From Chiloscyllium plagiosum (lineage: Eukaryota): a DNA stretch of 64,000 nt. This document shows, piece by piece, positions 5,976-41,908 of the stretch; within the stretch, counting starts at the first letter, position 1; every line of letters starts with the position of its first letter. Below the pieces are notes generated by a model. That model made no database searches and was not told the DNA's origin. It was given only the letters and a program-made list of their open reading frames with translations. A program made the position numbers and the translations under genes. The stretch is taken from NCBI RefSeq assembly GCF_004010195.1, contig NC_057717.1:34749298-34813297 (forward strand), in the 5' to 3' direction.

Positions 5976-7168
5976 GCTACAGTTCCACATCAGCAATTGC
6001 CTGACGTTCAATCAGTTTAAAACAAGAACGGAGGGGGTGTCAGGAAAACGGAAGGGGAATTGTGGTTTGTGAGAGTTGACTGCATGCCTCCTGGAGCCAG
6101 GTTCAATGTAGATACTGAATATCGGTTTTCCTGTTTGCCTTGATATACTGATCACTACGGATCAATTATCCAATATTGTCTGCCCTTTGTGTGTTGTTCT
6201 TTGTATATTTCACCTCGGTTCAGTGCTCCGGGACGACCACGCATTTTTTTTTTAAAATTTGGCACGTTTTACCCAGGTCGGTTTTGCAGCTTCATATTAA
6301 GGCCAACAATTTTAGGAACAGAAAGACACCATTGAGACCATCGAGTCTGCTCCGCTATTGAATGGTTCCATATCTGATCTGATAACCTTGAACTGCACTT
6401 TCTTGCCTTTCCCCATAAGGCTTGATGTCTTTGCTGTTTGAAGATCTCCAGATCTCAGCCTCATTACACCTAATGACACTTTCTCAACAGCCTTCTGCTA
6501 AAAGAAAGTCCACTGATACCGAACTGTCTGACAGAATAAATGCTTCACATCTCTATTTTAATTGTGGGATCCGCATTAGAATACAAAGTTAAAAATCACA
6601 CAACACCAGGTCAGTGTCCAACAGGTTTAATGGAAGCAATAGCTTTTGGAGAGCTGCTCCTTCATCAGGTGGCTGTGGAGTACACAGTGGTAAGACACAG
6701 AATTTATAGGAAAAGCTTACAGTGTAATGTCACTGAAGTTATACATTGAGAAATACCTTGATTGTTTGTTAAGTCCTCCATCTGTTAGAATGACTATGTT
6801 AGGTTCACTTCTTTCTTATGTAAATCGAAAAACTTTGTTTAACAGTTACATTCTCAGGTGAACTTTACCAATTAGTGTCATCACAGATAATATGTTGACA
6901 GTGTTAGTCCCTGTGTGCTGCGTCTGTGCCATAATGTTTAGACTGACGTTAATCTACAAAAAAAAACAACACGCTGCAGGCAAGAATACTTTAAGGCATG
7001 ATACATTGGTGAAACCGAGCAGAGGCTACAGCAACGGAATGAGCACTGCACATCAATAAACAGATAGGTATGCCCCATCCCACTTCAGCGGTCCAGGACA
7101 TTTGACCTCGGACCTTCGAGTGTCAATCCTCCAGGGCGGGCTTCGGAACAGGCAGCAGCTAAAAGTGC

Positions 7169-7385
7169 TGAAAATGTGTTGCAGGAAAAGTAGCAGGTCA
7201 GGCAGCATCCAAGGAACAGGAGAATCGACGTTTCGGCATAAGCCCTTCTTCAGGAATTCCTGAAGAAGGGCTTATGCCCGAAACGTCGATTCTCCTGTTC
7301 ATTGGATGCTGCCTAACCTGCTGCGCTTTTCCAGCAACATATTTTCAGCTCTGATCTCCAGCATCTGCAGTCCTCACTTTCTCCT
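7169..7385. mobile_element. 217-bp fold-back PLE-derived mini-element with 15-bp TSD
   Basis: AGCAGCTAAAAGTGC at 7154-7168 and 7386-7400; palindrome centred at 7256/7257 (ttcttcaggaa|ttcctgaagaa). Confidence 0.9.
7257..7291 (+). ncRNA. Minimal type I hammerhead ribozyme motif
   Basis: UUC-CUGAAGA-A-GGGC-UUAU-GCCC-GAA-ACGU-C-GAUU: full core, 4-bp helix II, palindromic ACGU helix III; predicted cut after C7287. Confidence 0.75.
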
Positions 7386-8286
7386 AGCAGCTAAAAGTGC
7401 CCACGCAGAGGCTGATAGCTAAAGTCGGTACCCATGGGAATTGCCTCAGCCAGGTCCTTGGGTTCATGTCACAGTTCCGGTGATCCCATTGCCCTATCTA
7501 CAAACAGAGACCCTCCTACACACACACACACAAACACATATACGTTTGTGGGGTGAAATTGTACTTGCAGAGTTACAATGTACTTTGCTCAAAAACTGTA
7601 TGAATCCATGTAAGTCTCTGGTAACTCATTTTTATAAATTAGAATCAGTTTAAACATAATGGAACAGACAGCAGCACACGCGGGCAGACATCAGTTGTTG
7701 AATTTCTAACTGAGAATGAAACTTTATAATAACAAGTCTTGCACTTTACATATGAAAGAAGTGAAGCTAACATGGTCATTCTAACAGATCGGAGACTTAG
7801 CAAACAATCAAGGTATTTCTCAATGTCTAATTTCAGTCACATCACACTGTAAACGTATGCTATAAATTCTGTGACTTACAACTGTGTACTCCACAATCAC
7901 CTGATGAATGAGCAGCGGTCCGAAAGCTAGTACTTCCACTTAAGTCTGTTGAACGATAACCTGGTGTTGTGTGATTTTCAAATTTGCATACCCCAGTCCA
8001 AAACCGGCATTTCCAACTCATTCGATGTGAGGCGCTCTGGTTACAGAACCAAACTTTCTGCGACTTTTTAAATCCTTGAAAAAAACCTATATGTTTCAAT
8101 AAGGATCATTTTTGTAGTACTGAGTCTGAGCAGGCAAAGGCAACTGATTTCAGCGTTTCTTCCCATTTGATTTCATCTCCGATATGAAATTCTCACTGAC
8201 TCTGACAGAACTGCTACCTTTGCTGTTTTATAATGTCAGGAACTCATGTTCAATTTAAGATTTTCATAAGGAACAACAAATATTTT

Positions 8287-17361: not shown

Positions 17362-17679
17362 ATTACTGTTTGCAATTGCTGAGCCAATATCCATTGATGA
17401 GGAAAATTCAATCCTGTATGTCGATCCAGTATGCAAAGTTCTTTACTGGAGAAATTGGACAGTTAGTTGCCATTCTATAATTGCCCTAAACTCTTTATCT
17501 GAGACTTTTTTTGACTATGCAACATGTGTAAAGTATTGAAGACATGGTTTTGTCCTTCATTTCCATGTTCCAGCTTGACTGTCAGTGGCTTGAAATCCTG
17601 ACACTCCTATTCAAGTTTCTAAAAATGTTTTTATTCTGAACGTAAATGTTTGCTTAAATTGGCTTAATACCATTTGATG

Positions 17680-19240
17680 AACGTGAGGACTGCAGATGCT
17701 GGAGACCAGAGTTGAAAAATGTGATGCTGGAAAAACACAGCAGGCCAGGCAGCATCCGAGAAGCAGCAGAATCGACGTTTCGGGCATAAGCCCTTCTTCA
17801 GGAATGAGGCTGGTGTGCCAGGCGGGCTGAAATAAAAGGTAGGGGAAGCGATTGGGGGAGGGGCGCTGGGAATACGATAGGTGGAAGGAGGTGACGGTGA
17901 GGGTGATAGGCCAGAGAGGGGGTGGGGCAGAGAGGTAGGAAAGAAGATTGCAGGTCCAGAGGGCGATGCTGCATCCGGGGGTTGGAACTGAGATAATGTG
18001 GGGGGAGAGGAAATGTGGAAGCTGGAGAAATTTACATTCATCCCGTGTGGGTGGAGGTTTCCTAGGCGGAATATGAGGCGCTCTTCCTCCAGGCGTCATG
18101 TGGTCAGGGTCTGGCAATGGAGGAGGTCAAGAAACTGCATGTCCTTGGCGGAGTGTGAGGGGGAGTTAAAGTTTGGGTTAGTTGGTGCGGGTGTCCCAGA
18201 TATGTTCCCTGAAACGTTCCGCAAGTAGGCGGCCTGTCCCCCCAATGTAGTGGAGACCACATCGTGTGCAACGGATACAGTAAATGATGTGTGTTGAGTG
18301 CAGGTGAATTTGCGACGGATATGGAAGGATCCATTGGGGCCTTGGAGGGAGGTGACGGGGGAGATTTGGGCGCAAGTTTTGGACTTCTTGCGGTTGCAGA
18401 GGAAGGTTCTGGGAGTGGAGGGAGGGTTGGTGGGGGGTGTGGACCTGACGAGGGAGTCGCGGAGGAAGTGGCCTCTCCGGAATGCTGATAGGGGTCGGGA
18501 GGGAAGTATTTCCCTGATGGTGGGGTCTGTATGGAGGTGGCGGAAATGACGGAGGATGACACGATGTATCCGGAAGTTGGTGGGGTGGAAGGTGAGGACC
18601 AGTGGGGTTCTATTGTGGTGGCGACTGGAGGGGCAGGGTTCAAGGCCGGAGGTGCGGGAAGTGGAGGAGATGCGGTGGAGAGCATTGTCGACCACTTTGG
18701 AGGGGAAATTGCTGTCTTCGAAGAATGAGGCCATTTTTGTTCGGTAGTGGAATTGATCCTCCTGGGAGAAGATGCAGCGGAGGCGAAGGAATTGGGAATA
18801 TGGGATGGCGTTTTTACAGGGGGCAGGATGGGAAGATGTGTAATCTAGGTAGCTGTGGGAATCGATCTGCTGATAGTCAATTTTTGTGTTCAGTCGGTCG
18901 CCCGAGATAGAAATGGAGAGGTCGAGGAAGGGGGGGGAGGAGTCTGAGACAGTCCAGGTAAATGTGAGGTCAGGGTGAAGAGCGCCTCATCTTCCACCTC
19001 GGAACCCTCCAACCACACGGGATGAATGTAGATTTCTCCAGCTTCCTCATTTCCCCTCCCCCTCTCTGGCCTATCACACTCACCCTCACCTCCTTCCACC
19101 TATCGTATTCCCAGCGCCCCTCCCCCAAATCCCCTCTCCCCTACGTTTTCTCTCAGCCCGCCTGGCACACCAGCCTCATCCCTGAAGAAGGGCTTATGCC
19201 CAAAACATCGATTCTCCTGCTCCTCGGATGCTGCCTGGCA
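17680..19240 (-). mobile_element. Penelope-like element: RT C-terminus + GIY-YIG, with a terminal repeat and an inverted partial copy
   Basis: Minus strand CKNAIPYSQFLRL..., IIYCIRCTRCGLHYIGGTGRLLAERFREH; ~18985-19240 is the inverse of ~17745-18090. Confidence 0.9.
17770..17805 (-). ncRNA. Minimal hammerhead ribozyme motif in the PLE 3' terminal repeat
   Basis: AUUC-CUGAAGA-A-GGGC-UUAU-GCCC-GAA-ACGU-C-GAUU on the same strand as the PLE ORF. Confidence 0.75.
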
Positions 19241-22200: not shown

Positions 22201-22344
22201 AGGGTGACAGACTGAAGAAATGGTTTTCTCTTCTATTTATTCTGTACTGTCTCTTCAATGCCCCAACCCCAGGCATGCCTCATTGCCTCATCCTGTGGAA
22301 GTCAAAGGAACCCTATACCCACACGACGATCTTACACAGCCATT

Positions 22345-22434
22345 CCTGATGAAGGGCTCTTGCCTAAAACATTGCTTTTCCTGCTCTTCGGATGCTGCCT
22401 GACTTGCTGTGATTTTTCAGCACTACTCTAATCT
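22345..22434 (+). mobile_element. 90-bp hammerhead-headed PLE-derived insert with 13-bp diverged TSD
   Basis: Starts CCTGATGAAGGGC; flanks TTACACAGCCATT (22332-22344) and TTACGCAGTCATT (22435-22447). Confidence 0.7.
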
Positions 22435-32491: not shown

Positions 32492-33933
32492 CTTCTGATC
32501 TCTGCCTTCTCTGATCGAAATAGACGTGTGATTTATAATTTTTGAGGGTTGTTATACATTAATATTGGTGTGTCAGATAGGTCTCAGTCTCAGGGAGGGG
32601 TGACGTGCTTTTTTGTTTCGTGATGAGCTCAGGGCAACATCGGGTAGTAAGTGTGTAGACCCAAAGAGTGCAGGAGCAGAGGATCCTCCATGTATTTGTG
32701 CACGAATCAGAGAATGTACCATGACATGTGGACAGAAAAGCAAATAAACCCGACTTCATCAATAACGCTGCAGAGAACAAACACAAAACAATTATGTTAA
32801 ACTGAAATAAAACAGTCGCTTGTCTCACCTGGAATATTGCATTCAGGTTCAGGTCCCACAGTTTTGAAAAAATGTAAAGCAATGAGACAGGCTGTGTGAC
32901 TGTACCTCACTGACTTTGAGAAATGGACTTTTCTCCTCTGCTGATAGTTTCCAGACTCTGTGAGCAGTTGCTTTGATTGGTTCTCGATTCCGTCTTGCAT
33001 CATATGGAATCCAATGGCTAAATATTTCCAGTACTTCTGAGCTCTGCCTTGCCTGGTCGACATCGACATCTGATTTATTATTTTTGAGGGTTGCTGTTCA
33101 GTAATATCTCCGAATCAGATATAACTCAGCCTCATTTCCTTGGACTTGACAGGTGTGCTGTATCAAATAGACCCCAGGATTTGTGCTCCATGAGATTTAC
33201 GTATGAGGAAAATCGCCAGTTCTGAGAATCCACCCTGGGATTGTGCATGTGTTGTGAGTTCTACATGAATGCATGCAGTTTTTGAGCAAAGTACAATGTA
33301 ACCCTCCAAGTACAAATTCACCCCACAAAATATGTGCATGTGGGTCTTTGTCTGTGTGTGTGTGTGTGTCTGTTCGGGTTGGTGGTTGTGAGTGTGGGAA
33401 AGTGTATGTGTGTAGTGAGTGCAGAGTGTCTTAAGTCTGTGAGGGAGTGCATGTGGGAGTGTGTGTGTGTCTGTAAGAGTGTGTGTGGGTGTCCGTGTGC
33501 ACGTCTGTGTATATGTGTGTATGTGTATACAGGAGTGCCTCTGTGTGTGTGAGAGGGTGTGTGTGTGTAGGAGTATCTGTGTGCGTGTGTAGTGCAATGG
33601 TGGTCACCTGTAATGTGACATGAACCCAAGGTCCCAGTTTAGGCCCTCCCTATGGGTACCAAACGTAGCTATCAGCCTCTGTTCGGCCACTTTTCTCTGC
33701 TGCCTGTCGCGAAGTCCACCTTGGAGGATGGTCACCCGAAGGTCCGAGGCTGAATATCCTGGATCACTAAAATATTCCCCAACTGGGAACCCTCCTGTCT
33801 GTTGATTGTTGTGCGGTGCTCATTTATTCGTTGTCATAGCCTTTGCTCAGTCTCCCCAATGAACCATGCCTCCGGGCATCCTTGCCTGCAACTTATAAGA
33901 TAGACAACGTTGGCTGAGTCACATGAGTACCTG

Positions 33934-34020
33934 AAGAAGGGTTTATGCCCAAAGCGTCGATTTTCCTGTTTCTTTGATGCTGCCTGACCTGCTGCACTTT
34001 CCAGCAACACATTTTTAAGC
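33934..34020 (+). mobile_element. 87-bp hammerhead-headed PLE-derived insert with perfect 15-bp TSD
   Basis: TCACATGAGTACCTG at 33919-33933 and 34021-34035; duplicates RYSC in the host GIY-YIG frame. Confidence 0.9.
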
Positions 34021-34523
34021 TCACATGAGTACCTGCCATGCGTAAGGTGGGAGGTGTCCCCACGCGTAATAGTGGTATCGATGTCCACACACTGACACGT
34101 CTTGCAGCGCCTACCGTGACAGGGTTGCATGGAGTTGTCCTGAGAGCCGGGCAGCTTGCTAGGAACAACGATCTGTTTGAGGTTTGGCGGTTGCTTAAAG
34201 GCAAAAACTGCATGAATTTATGTAAAACTCCGTTATCTCACTTTTTAGATTAGAATCAATCTCAACATCATGGCATAGACAGAGAACACATGGGGCCAAC
34301 ACCTTCAACATATTGTCTAGCTATCACCATTTTCAACTGCTAAACCGAGACGGCAACATTTTTAAAAAAGGTTATGTGATTTCCACATGAAAGAAGTGAA
34401 ACTATCACTGTATTCTAACAGATGAAAGGCTTAACGATCAATTTTCCAATGTATAATTTCAGTTACCTCACACTGTAAATGTTTACTATAAATTCTGTGT
34501 GTTAGGATTGAGCTCTCCTCTAT

Positions 34524-37080: not shown

Positions 37081-37890
37081 CTATTATACCAGACTGCAAT
37101 TTTTATTATTCTAATTTTGTTGTTCTTATTTTAATGGATTGCCCACAATTTGATCTGACCTTGATGTTGTAGGAAACATTTCCCATCATCGTGAAGAGAT
37201 CAGAGCTTTATGAGCGACTCTTCTGTTGCAGTGAGAGAATTTCTGTCTCTGAGACAAAAGTCCTGAGTTCAAATCCCCACTGCTCCAGAGATAACATTTC
37301 TGACTGTGTGTATTAGAAAATAGCGACTCGTGTTCTGTATTTGAAACAATGCAACATCAGGTGTTCGAATACTATAATTGCTCCCATGTGCTCCAGAAAA
37401 CTGAGACCAGACTATGGAATACAAACCGGGATGATGCAAACACCAGTTTTCGATTATGGGAGTCACCGTTAATCATTTGTTAATAGGGCCAAGCATGTCT
37501 AACATGCTTCAAAGGTATTATTTTGCATGGAAATTTTATATCTTCAAATAGTAAGCAAGAAGCTGAATGTTCCTGTTGGGAACTGGACTCTACTGTGAAA
37601 ACTGCATTGGGGGTAAGAGTACAGACCGTTCATCGTTCCACTGTCCACTTCCCTGTGCTCCACAACAACGTATCTGTTGGTTCTCTTTGGTGTGAAAGTG
37701 AAGATACATTCTGTCAACTCATGCGCTGGTGCAAGATCCCTGGCACTTCCGCAGAAACAACGGTTACATTCAAGTTGCTCTGCACTCTTTACAATTGGAA
37801 TCTGTTTAAGAGATTAAAAGTCTCTTAAATTTACGTTTCCAATTGGTGCAATGTGGCAGTTTAAAACTGACGTCAATTTTGTAAGAATGG

Positions 37891-38084
37891 GTAAAAACAA
37901 GGATTGCAGATGCTGGAAACCATATTCTAGATGAGAGTGGTACTGGAAAAGCCCAGCAGTTCAGGCAGCATCCGAGGAACAGGAAAATCGACGATTCATC
38001 AAGGGCTTTTACCCGAAACGTCGATTTTCCTGCTGCTCAGATGGTGCCTGAACTGCTGTGCTTTTCCAGCACCACTCTAACCTA
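37891..38084. mobile_element. 194-bp fold-back PLE-derived mini-element with 16-bp TSD
   Basis: AATTTTGTAAGAATGG (37875-37890) and AATTTTGTGAGAATGG (38085-38100); inverted arms around a degenerate hammerhead. Confidence 0.85.
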
Positions 38085-38321
38085 AATTTTGTGAGAATGG
38101 TCAATCGGGGAATCAGGGACACGAAGTTCAAAACTCATGGTCTACCTTTGATGTAGAATGGACATTGTCAGATTTCATTACTGTGGGATTTCGGTTAGAT
38201 AAAGTACTTGGTGAAATCCTGCAATGAGTGAGCTTTACTCTGTGTCTCACCCAGGGTGTATCTGAGCGAGAATATTAACTGCACAAGACACGCTTCCCAG
38301 ACCTGTTAATAATCCAGTTTA

Positions 38322-39851: not shown

Positions 39852-41908
39852 CTATGAAACAGAAATCAAAATCAATGAAAAATGCCTCTTTAGGATGAAA
39901 ACACCAACTCTTCAGGTTATTTCCTCACAAGGTGAAGTTACCACCTTCGAAATGGCAACTTCCGACTATTGCTAAAATGATGCTTACTATTGTTTATGTA
40001 TTTTGATCTGTGAAAGCATTCGTGATTATCTATAACATAGCCTGTGCAATTATTCCTAAAGAATACTGGCTTTGTAACAAGTGAGACGGGTAAAAAAAAG
40101 TAAAATCATCGAATATACCATAATGTAATCTATGAAATTACTTTTCTTTCAGAGTTGGTCTCTCACTTAAGACTATCTATTGATACTTGGGACAAGATTA
40201 ATCTGTATATAATGTGTTCATTTCTATGTCCATGAACGTTCCGTGCAAATGCTGCTGGTCACGCTTGAGTGCCAAATCAGATCCAGAATTTTGGACAAAT
40301 TGTAATTAATCATAATTATTCTCTTTGTCTTCATGCATTTGCAGAGGTTCTAAAGTGTTACAGGAGAGGTGAAAGGCCATGGAAATTCTGTTTATTATAT
40401 TTAATGTGATCAAAAATACTTGGCATTATTGGTGTGAGATCATTATTTAATTTATGACATTATTCCTCGTGGACTGAATTTGTGTAGATCTGAAAACAAG
40501 ACACTGAGTGTAGCACTGGACATCATGAAGGACACGCATCCCCTCAAGTCTTTACCCCCATTCAATGAGGTCATGACTGGGCTGTACATTCACTTTCTTT
40601 ACGAAGCTGCATTTTTTAATTTCTTCATTGAACAAATAAACAAGCAGAAGCATCTAAAATTAATCTACAAACTCGATGGAAATGTGCACAGGTTTTATTC
40701 AGATGTCTACTACTCACTGTGTAAACATCTCCATCCCAAATCAGGCTGAATCAGTATGTCTCGACTTCCTAGTTCATTTATCCCAATTGTAGCATTCCCA
40801 CCAGAATTTATTCTCCTGTCTCACTCACTAATCACGGAGAGCGTCTTAAAGTAGATCAGTGAGAGCACGTTTATCCTAATTAATCAAATGTGAAACCCAC
40901 TTGATCTGTGGTCTGATCCCATAAGTGAAGTTAAAGAGCTCAGTACCAGATATAAAAAAATGTGTCGTACAATGCCCAAGGCTAACAAGTCATTCCTGAG
41001 TAGGGAATGAAGTATTGAACGAATTTTGATTTATTTTCAATAGGGGTCATTGCATATTTTTACCATATCATTTTGAGATTAGAAGATCATAAGATAGAGG
41101 ATCAGAATCAGGCTATTCGGCCAATCAAGTCTTCTCCGCCATTCAATTATGGCTGATATGTTTCACAACCCCATTCTCCTGCCTTCTCCCCGTACTAAGC
41201 AAGAGCCGATCTATCTCTGTCTTGAATACACACAATGGCCTGGGATCCACAGCCCTCTGCAGCAATGGGCTCCATAGTTTCATCATCCTCTGGCAGAAAA
41301 AAATCCCTCCCCATTTTAGTTCCAAATGGTGCTCCCTTGGACTCTGAGACTGTACCCTTGGGTCCTAGTATCAACTACCGGTCAAAATATCTACTCCAAG
41401 TTCTCTCAGTATTTTCTAAGTTTCAATCAGATTCCTCGCAGACACATCTGACCCCAAATTATCCTTGAGGTCACTACCAGACAAGGATTCGGAACTCTGA
41501 ATGCCTCTCCCATGAAAGGCTTTTGCCCGAAACGTCGATTTCGAAGCTCCTTGGATGCTGCCTGAACTGCTGTGCTCTTCCAGCACCACTAATCCAGAAT
41601 CTGGTTTCCAGCATCTGCAGTCATTGTTTTTACCTTTTTTTAATCTCCCAGCATGGTCAGCCAAGAAACTATTTAACAAGACTCACTGTCTATATGTCTT
41701 CAACAGAGAGGAAACATGCTTTTCTGATTAGCTAAAGTATTGAATTTTGAGCAATGCTAATGTGACACTCAAACAGAAATAACAGACACATAGCATGTTG
41801 GGAAATTTGAAGCTGTACCGTGCTGTTTACTAAGCCTGATAAATTTGCGTGTTTGATTAACATCTGAGTTCAGAATGATTTGTAGCTCTCTCGGTATGTG
41901 TCTGTTAC

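Follow-up and report, generated by a model that had tools for sequence, protein, structure and literature searches.

In our study, the 217-bp insert was found to have the ordinary architecture of a Penelope insertion and is not a new ribozyme element. It likely consists of two head-to-head copies of the 5′ end of a Penelope-like element (PLE), built anew at each insertion, and not of a ribozyme element that spreads as such. The fold point between the two copies likely marks the RNA start of the parent element, a start site and cap being suggested by the sequence of the copies. The insert is one of very many likely dead insertions, and its value is mechanistic. Positions refer to the window, that is, the whole 64,000-nucleotide stretch of Chiloscyllium plagiosum DNA that was analysed. 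Papers are cited by PMC number.

Structure of the insert

The insert extended from nucleotide 7169 to 7385 and was bounded by a perfect direct repeat, AGCAGCTAAAAGTGC, whose left (7154–7168) and right (7386–7400) copies were identical at 15/15 positions; the last GC of the left copy also matches the arm end. The palindrome centre, GGAA/TTCC, was located at 7256/7257, between arms of about 88 bp (7169–7256 and 7257–7347) that were about 91% alike, followed by an unpaired, one-sided tail of 38 nt (7348–7385). An earlier note on this DNA had claimed a 217-bp insert with a perfect 15-bp target-site duplication and a palindrome of about 88-bp arms with an extra tail, and both were confirmed. The hairpin had a folding z-score of −18.7, and none of the 200 shuffled sequences was as stable. 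In a paralogous copy of the host element (33617–33763) the duplicated motif was present once, and duplications of 12–17 nt, variable in length, flanked 35/58 fold-back relatives of the insert; therefore the repeat at 7154/7386 is a true target duplication. A search for the empty site in four contig sets from other animals gave, among the matches listed, no joint from which the insert was missing.

Element coordinates were counted from nucleotide C3 of the plus-strand hammerhead, with window position 7260 as 0 and the predicted cut after +27. The short arm (7169–7256, minus strand) is an inverted copy of the 5′ end of the element RNA, and would span from a putative start A out to the inner of two reverse transcriptase (RT) start sites, about +90 from C3. 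Its outer end fell between +81 and +97 in 47/58 relatives. The paired part of the long arm (7256–7347, plus strand) is a sense copy of the pseudo-LTR from the putative transcription start A(−4). The arms meet in a head-to-head junction (7253–7260) with an AT overlap, at which both would reach the start A (7256 on the plus strand). The tail (plus strand, ending at about +125) corresponds to the Penelope tail, the segment between two RT start sites as defined in PMC11167929.

Hammerhead motifs and predicted folding

The plus-strand core, CUGAAGA-A-GGGC UUAU GCCC-GAAACGUC, was located at 7260–7287 (C3 at 7260). By the motif definition of PMC4209133 it is a minimal PLE hammerhead, containing the conserved core, the extra base before helix II, G10.1-C11.1 and a palindromic helix III. 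Cleavage is predicted after 7287, helix I would pair 7256–7259 with 7288–7291, and helix III is the palindrome ACGU. The minus-strand core (7253–7227) was devoid of one helix II base, and the earlier description of one motif per strand, with a 1-nt helix II deletion in the minus copy, agrees with the sequence. Subfamily changes in the hammerhead were confined to loop II and position 7. In Rfam, no hammerhead family matched the insert; 11 sub-threshold hairpin matches were obtained, none at gathering score. The pairing probability of the plus-strand helix II was 0.0 in the full fold-back RNA versus 0.96–0.98 in a single arm, and the finished hairpin is predicted by this folding model to disable or bury the plus-strand ribozyme. 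An ATG in hammerhead loop II (7274–7276 in the window, also in relatives) starts a short reading frame that lies upstream of the main ATG (+163); in the anole element, the ORF start was reported at stem II (PMC11167929).

Host element and other copies in the window

Not mentioned in the earlier note is that the insert lies within an older PLE of a different family (6581 to about 8023, plus strand), whose endonuclease end it disrupts and which comprises a GIY-YIG-like end and a 3′ arm. This host is itself an inverted-arm insertion with unequal arms of about 300 and 1,100 bp; the inverted arm lies at 6581–6879, and a decayed hammerhead was found at 7901. No target duplication was found around the host element, and a Pfam scan of a 36-aa host piece gave no match. 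The host-family hammerhead differs in helix II and has AGCU as helix III. The family has the same two outer ends as that of the insert and a G-marked inner wall, described below. A 1.3-kb 3′ fragment of the insert's parent family, containing the RT end, the endonuclease and the same arm, was present on the minus strand at 17677–18980. Further copies of the insert family in the window were observed at 17677–19239, 22341–22434, 33930–34022, 37889–38086 and 41512–41634, and included that 3′ fragment together with an inverted partner, arms on their own and an older fold-back flanked by a duplication.

Parent family

A 34-nt tail sequence had 29,654 exact matches in the 3.56-Gb genome, which is a lower bound on the number of tail copies. 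Sixty position-chosen 10-kb stretches (571,934 called bases) contained 111 scored arms, which extrapolates to roughly several hundred thousand arms, old subfamilies included. Upstream of the arm, a 3′ UTR was found, preceded by an ORF with RT and GIY-YIG matches, the arm following the endonuclease. A 561-aa open stretch in this ORF matched RVT_1 at 35.1 bits (cutoff 29.6; E 1.4e-8) and GIY-YIG at 20.7 bits (E 5e-4), just under the Pfam cutoff of 22.6. Downstream, rare copies run past the tail into the ORF, with its ATG at +163. The arm is thus joined to an RT/GIY-YIG ORF on one side and to an ORF start on the other, and is therefore the pseudo-LTR of an autonomous PLE, serving both as the 3′ repeat and, as pieced together from the sequences of separate copies, as the 5′ end of the mRNA. 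The parent is an endonuclease-positive PLE with one ORF that encodes RT and, C-terminally, GIY-YIG, and separate copies place its hammerhead-bearing pseudo-LTR on either side, behind the ORF in some and ahead of the ORF start in others. The Penelope origin of the insert and its mobilisation by a Penelope RT/GIY-YIG, proposed in the earlier note, were borne out.

The RT-endonuclease linker of the parent protein was Cys-rich. Neptune elements are defined by a Zn-finger-like Cys motif in this linker, common to Nematis (PMC8557442), together with their phylogenetic placement; the Cys-rich linker makes the parent a candidate member of the Neptune clade. Among 32 long-copy loci, in which assembly gaps were many, none held an intact full-length element. 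Long copies (L181–L192, L240–L259) very often adjoined such gaps, so full-length elements are probably under-assembled. At one long-copy locus (L246:4641–6776, G000:C38), about 82 head-to-tail matches with 26-bp spacing were observed, expanded from a short piece inside the ORF. A minor third outer end was also observed, about 7 nt beyond the tail (L210–L239); the extended pattern had 498 exact matches, and most of 30 loci with it end right after it.

Fold-back copies in the genome

The fold-back copies were tabulated in a tail-anchored sample, unselected for the centre, most of which came from a single contig, within its first 9 Mb. Its 96 rows were reduced to 95 (L074 being the same as L073) and then to 87, after removal of 8 with N at the junction. 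This sample and the position-chosen one replaced the top 30 BLAST matches, which had been selected for likeness to the query. The 87 tail-anchored arms comprised 58 fold-backs and 29 arms without an adjacent inverted arm. The query thus shares with many relatives an inverted 5′-truncated copy and a one-sided tail of 30–40 bp, with a target duplication, an architecture already published for PLEs (PMC3846280, PMC8557442).

The earlier note had proposed that the insert is mobilised as a discrete, non-autonomous fold-back, similar to a MITE or retrozyme. Such a unit would be copied from master palindromes, and its centres would be eroded later, palindromes being unstable. The top 30 BLAST matches were uniform at both ends, the exact 30-nt centre of the query had 696 copies in the genome, and one complex junction was common to two loci 114 kb apart, all of which would fit a copied unit. 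However, even the top matches, selected for query likeness, already differed in their centres, and against the fixed outer ends the 58 fold-backs had 57 distinct junctions, the inner end of each arm varying independently. Fifteen loci with the exact centre of the query represented four or more subfamilies, and their arms matched; the same centre on several subfamilies indicates that it recurs and is not descended from one master. Parent bases beyond the query's centre were kept in 14/58 fold-backs, and centre loss was unrelated to arm divergence (rho 0.08, p 0.61, n = 49 of the 58). The fold-back arms share their stopping place with solo and direct-tandem copies, which also have the extra G described below, and long copies have the same outer ends. 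The shared complex junction occurs only twice in the genome. Copying as a unit is largely refuted by these findings, and we consider it very improbable. In the tail-anchored sample, the outer ends were fixed, and the centres and the duplication lengths varied. The claim of non-random inversion points did hold, as the inner ends pile up just 5′ of the hammerhead.

MITEs are uniform units with symmetric terminal inverted repeats and a constant interior. The copies in our study had a one-sided tail, differing centres and duplications of variable length. In retrozymes, same-strand repeated hammerheads release a unit-length circular RNA (PMC6155905, PMC6765202), whereas here the cores lie on opposite strands and the copies end away from the cut sites. 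For a non-autonomous PLE family similar to MRC1, a lineage of its own copied from non-coding masters, it was found that junctions were not inherited and that diagnostic variants were also present on ORF-bearing copies; one-arm non-coding sources may exist.

The two loci with the shared complex junction, L073 and L077 (G000:C1:1800956 and 1914770), may reflect local copying, conversion or an assembly artefact, and L073 was observed to carry tails at both ends and to be devoid of a duplication. The junction was rejected as a sign of a master copy, having only 2 genome copies. Direct partial tandems were also observed (L216, L217, L224, L230, L145), in which a copy reaching the ORF start is followed by an arm beginning at the wall. 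A G immediately precedes the start A in 4/5 of them, and their arrangement suggests template jumps or repeat insertion.

Inner ends of the arms and the extra G

The inner end of the further-reaching arm was located between −12 and +10 in 55/58 fold-backs, and arms without an inverted partner ended in the same region, which we call the wall. The stopping rate at −9 to 0 was 0.053 per nt in the 111 position-chosen arms and 0.086 per nt in 145 tail-anchored arms, versus 0.003–0.009 per nt further upstream, a 10–20-fold pile-up. The ends were spread over −8 to −4, and many arms had lost further bases. If the ends arose by ordinary random 5′ truncation or were set by hammerhead cleavage, the minority of arms that are scattered or reach into the ORF (26/111 beyond −10) would be accounted for, as would ends at the cut site, which numbered 358 versus 256 one base further on, a 1.4-fold excess confounded by microhomology. 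The pile-up itself, however, is not random, and 32 nt separate the wall from the cut site downstream of it. Matches to the start-site pattern outnumbered those to the cut-site pattern about 20-fold (6,863 versus 358), a rough ratio since the patterns differ, and many of the listed cut-site joins were GA microhomologies. As the main source of the ends, random truncation or cleavage is refuted, and its probability as a full explanation is minimal; a small share of cleaved templates may be present.

The parent sequence at the wall is CCTC-ATTC-C3, where A is nucleotide −4, in a pyrimidine-A context which we take to be initiator-like. Among the matches listed, the non-parent base at −5 was G in 59/100 by hand tally and in 63/100 once the main arm-derived context (G at −6) was excluded. 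With a longer context it was G in 49/100 of the matches listed, and in 24/47 joins to host flank, a subset sorted by hand. The expected share of G is 0.26, and the strictest set gave p 2e-4. In the local loci the excess was modest (19/39, p 0.03; 9/14, p 0.03), and no excess was found there for ends at −6 to −9 (3/13). Some of the extra Gs may derive from the other arm or from the choice of microhomology, and a cap G would be mimicked by a C added without template at the end of any RNA. The host family offers an independent test: its arm ends, too, accumulate immediately 5′ of the hammerhead, and the base before A(−8) is G in 64/100 among the matches listed and in 63/76 of those without read-through.

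The wall could instead be a stall of the RT at a folded or protein-bound hammerhead on a longer RNA, the mechanism being otherwise the same. The wall of the insert's family falls on the 5′ strand of helix I, and stopping is already raised at +1 to +10 (0.03 per nt). RNA reads gave no start site but were uninformative: one raw run contained 2,260 reads on both strands without a start or end peak, confounded by intronic genomic copies, and a second run contained none. A stall would nevertheless have to explain why each of two families has its extra G at one single position. In the host family, A(−8) is 5 nt past helix I, a position that fits an RNA end better than stalling at the ribozyme, and both walls fall at an A in an initiator-like pyrimidine-A context. 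We consider a stall improbable.

Origin of the two arms

The arms were concordant at subfamily sites (26/27 and 41/44 C/T pairs), and rare variants were common to both arms in 18/108 cases versus 3.7 expected, which indicates that both arms come from one source. This concordance could alternatively reflect later gene conversion. In 29/58 fold-backs the 5′ reach of the short arm exceeded that of the long arm by more than 5 nt, and the tail was present on the long arm alone, so neither arm is a simple copy of the other. A directional asymmetry between the arms, suggested by the top hits, was not reproduced, except for 7 versus 1 at one CpG site.

For rotifer Penelope elements, a single cDNA was proposed to form the mirror arm by priming itself (snap-back), with an antisense template as one example (PMC3846280). 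The shared rare variants and the short fold-back inserts at junctions would agree with this. However, the short arm often holds 5′ sequence absent from the long arm, and its outer ends are fixed and recur on non-inverted copies. The extra G, moreover, points to a sense, capped template and was found on both arms at C1:22812384–22812429. Snap-back is therefore an unlikely origin.

We consider it probable that the arms are twin-primed run-off cDNAs from the capped, uncut 5′ end of the mRNA, end-joined at insertion. The protein would bind the 5′ repeat of the capped mRNA, and a staggered cut about 15 bp apart would generate the target duplication, a product that was observed. Both nicks would prime, one strand starting at the tail end (+125) and the other about 38 nt inside (+90), if the fixed outer ends correspond, by analogy, to the pair of RT start sites in the anole element. 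Both start sites would be close to the 5′ end of the mRNA and upstream of the ORF, whose ATG is at +163, so that a unit-length mRNA would give cDNAs of only 90–130 nt, and long copies would need the same start sites in a read-through 3′ repeat. The cDNAs would end at the initiator-like A(−4), where the pile-up and the extra G were observed, this G presumably being read from the cap. Repair would then join the cDNA ends; at the junctions, variable loss, microhomology and small templated inserts were observed, the query being the cleanest. The product would likely be a dead end, with its hammerhead locked in the hairpin.

Previous studies reported that both target strands are cut and extended by the anole protein, which starts at two internal sites bounding the tail and prefers uncut RNA (PMC11167929), that L1 insertions bear an extra G at capped 5′ ends, their twin-primed junctions being end-joined (PMC11702581), and that Penelope has an internal promoter with an initiator (PMC2377424), a similar motif being noted in PMC3846280. 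We lean towards the broader view that a strong-stop-like pair of run-off cDNAs from capped sense mRNA is the main insertion product of these vertebrate PLEs. The cap G would then map promoters from genome sequence, and twin priming would explain the inverted repeat plus tail, arguing against antisense self-priming and against template preparation by the ribozyme.

The formation of PLE inverted repeats and tails was called undefined in PMC8557442. The copies described here yield base-level predictions, namely the RNA start, a capped sense template, two primings and no need for ribozyme cleavage, and make the question of Penelope insertion directly testable, for which the existing anole in vitro system is suited. 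If true, the mechanism would explain the thousands of lone or opposed minimal hammerheads versus few full elements in genomes. It also cautions against the annotation of such palindromes as MITEs or microRNA hairpins.

Comparison with known systems

Adineta Pen2a/Pen2 (PMC3846280; scheme in PMC8557442) have, like the copies in our study, a head-to-head inverted terminal repeat, a one-sided tail of 30–40 bp and a target duplication, and their repeat includes the ORF start region and an initiator-like motif. Unlike the Adineta elements, most copies here have no ORF, the duplication mode is 14–16 bp instead of 8–10, the copy number is tens of thousands or more, and the inner ends pile up at one G-marked position; the self-priming proposed for the rotifer elements also differs from twin priming.

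Poseidon PAc of the anole in vitro (PMC11167929) likewise has two internal RT start sites that define the tail, cutting and extension of both strands, a hammerhead at the repeat-ORF junction and uncut RNA as the main template. PAc belongs to the Penelope/Poseidon clade and its ORF runs from stem II, whereas here the ATG is at +163 and the RT-endonuclease linker is Cys-rich (Neptune-like). Fold-back products or cDNA 3′ ends are not described in the main-text passages of PMC11167929 that were compared.

The minimal hammerheads of metazoan PLEs (PMC4209133) share the core, the extra base between 9 and 10.1, G10.1-C11.1, the palindromic 15.2-16.2 and the short helix I. Opposite-strand hammerhead pairs 100–700 bp apart were regarded there as probable truncated elements; the pair in our study is spacerless, and its position would be set by the RNA start. 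The available text of PMC4209133 mentions no shark genome. No report of the start-site wall, the cap G or twin priming for PLEs was found in the open literature, with subscription papers, supplements, Repbase and Dfam outside the search.

Retrozymes and MITEs are similarly small, non-coding, very abundant and flanked by duplications, and retrozymes carry hammerheads. The copies here differ from them in lacking direct tandem hammerheads that would define a unit, as well as a constant interior and symmetric ends, and in sharing their sequence with the terminus of an autonomous element. In L1 twin priming (PMC11702581), as proposed here, the second priming takes place on the other target strand and the inversion junction is end-joined; discrete duplications of 12–18 bp and an extra G at full-length 5′ ends are also common to both. 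The second priming of L1 occurs at variable internal sites and the upstream sequence is inverted, whereas here both starts are fixed and adjacent, and the product is therefore palindromic.
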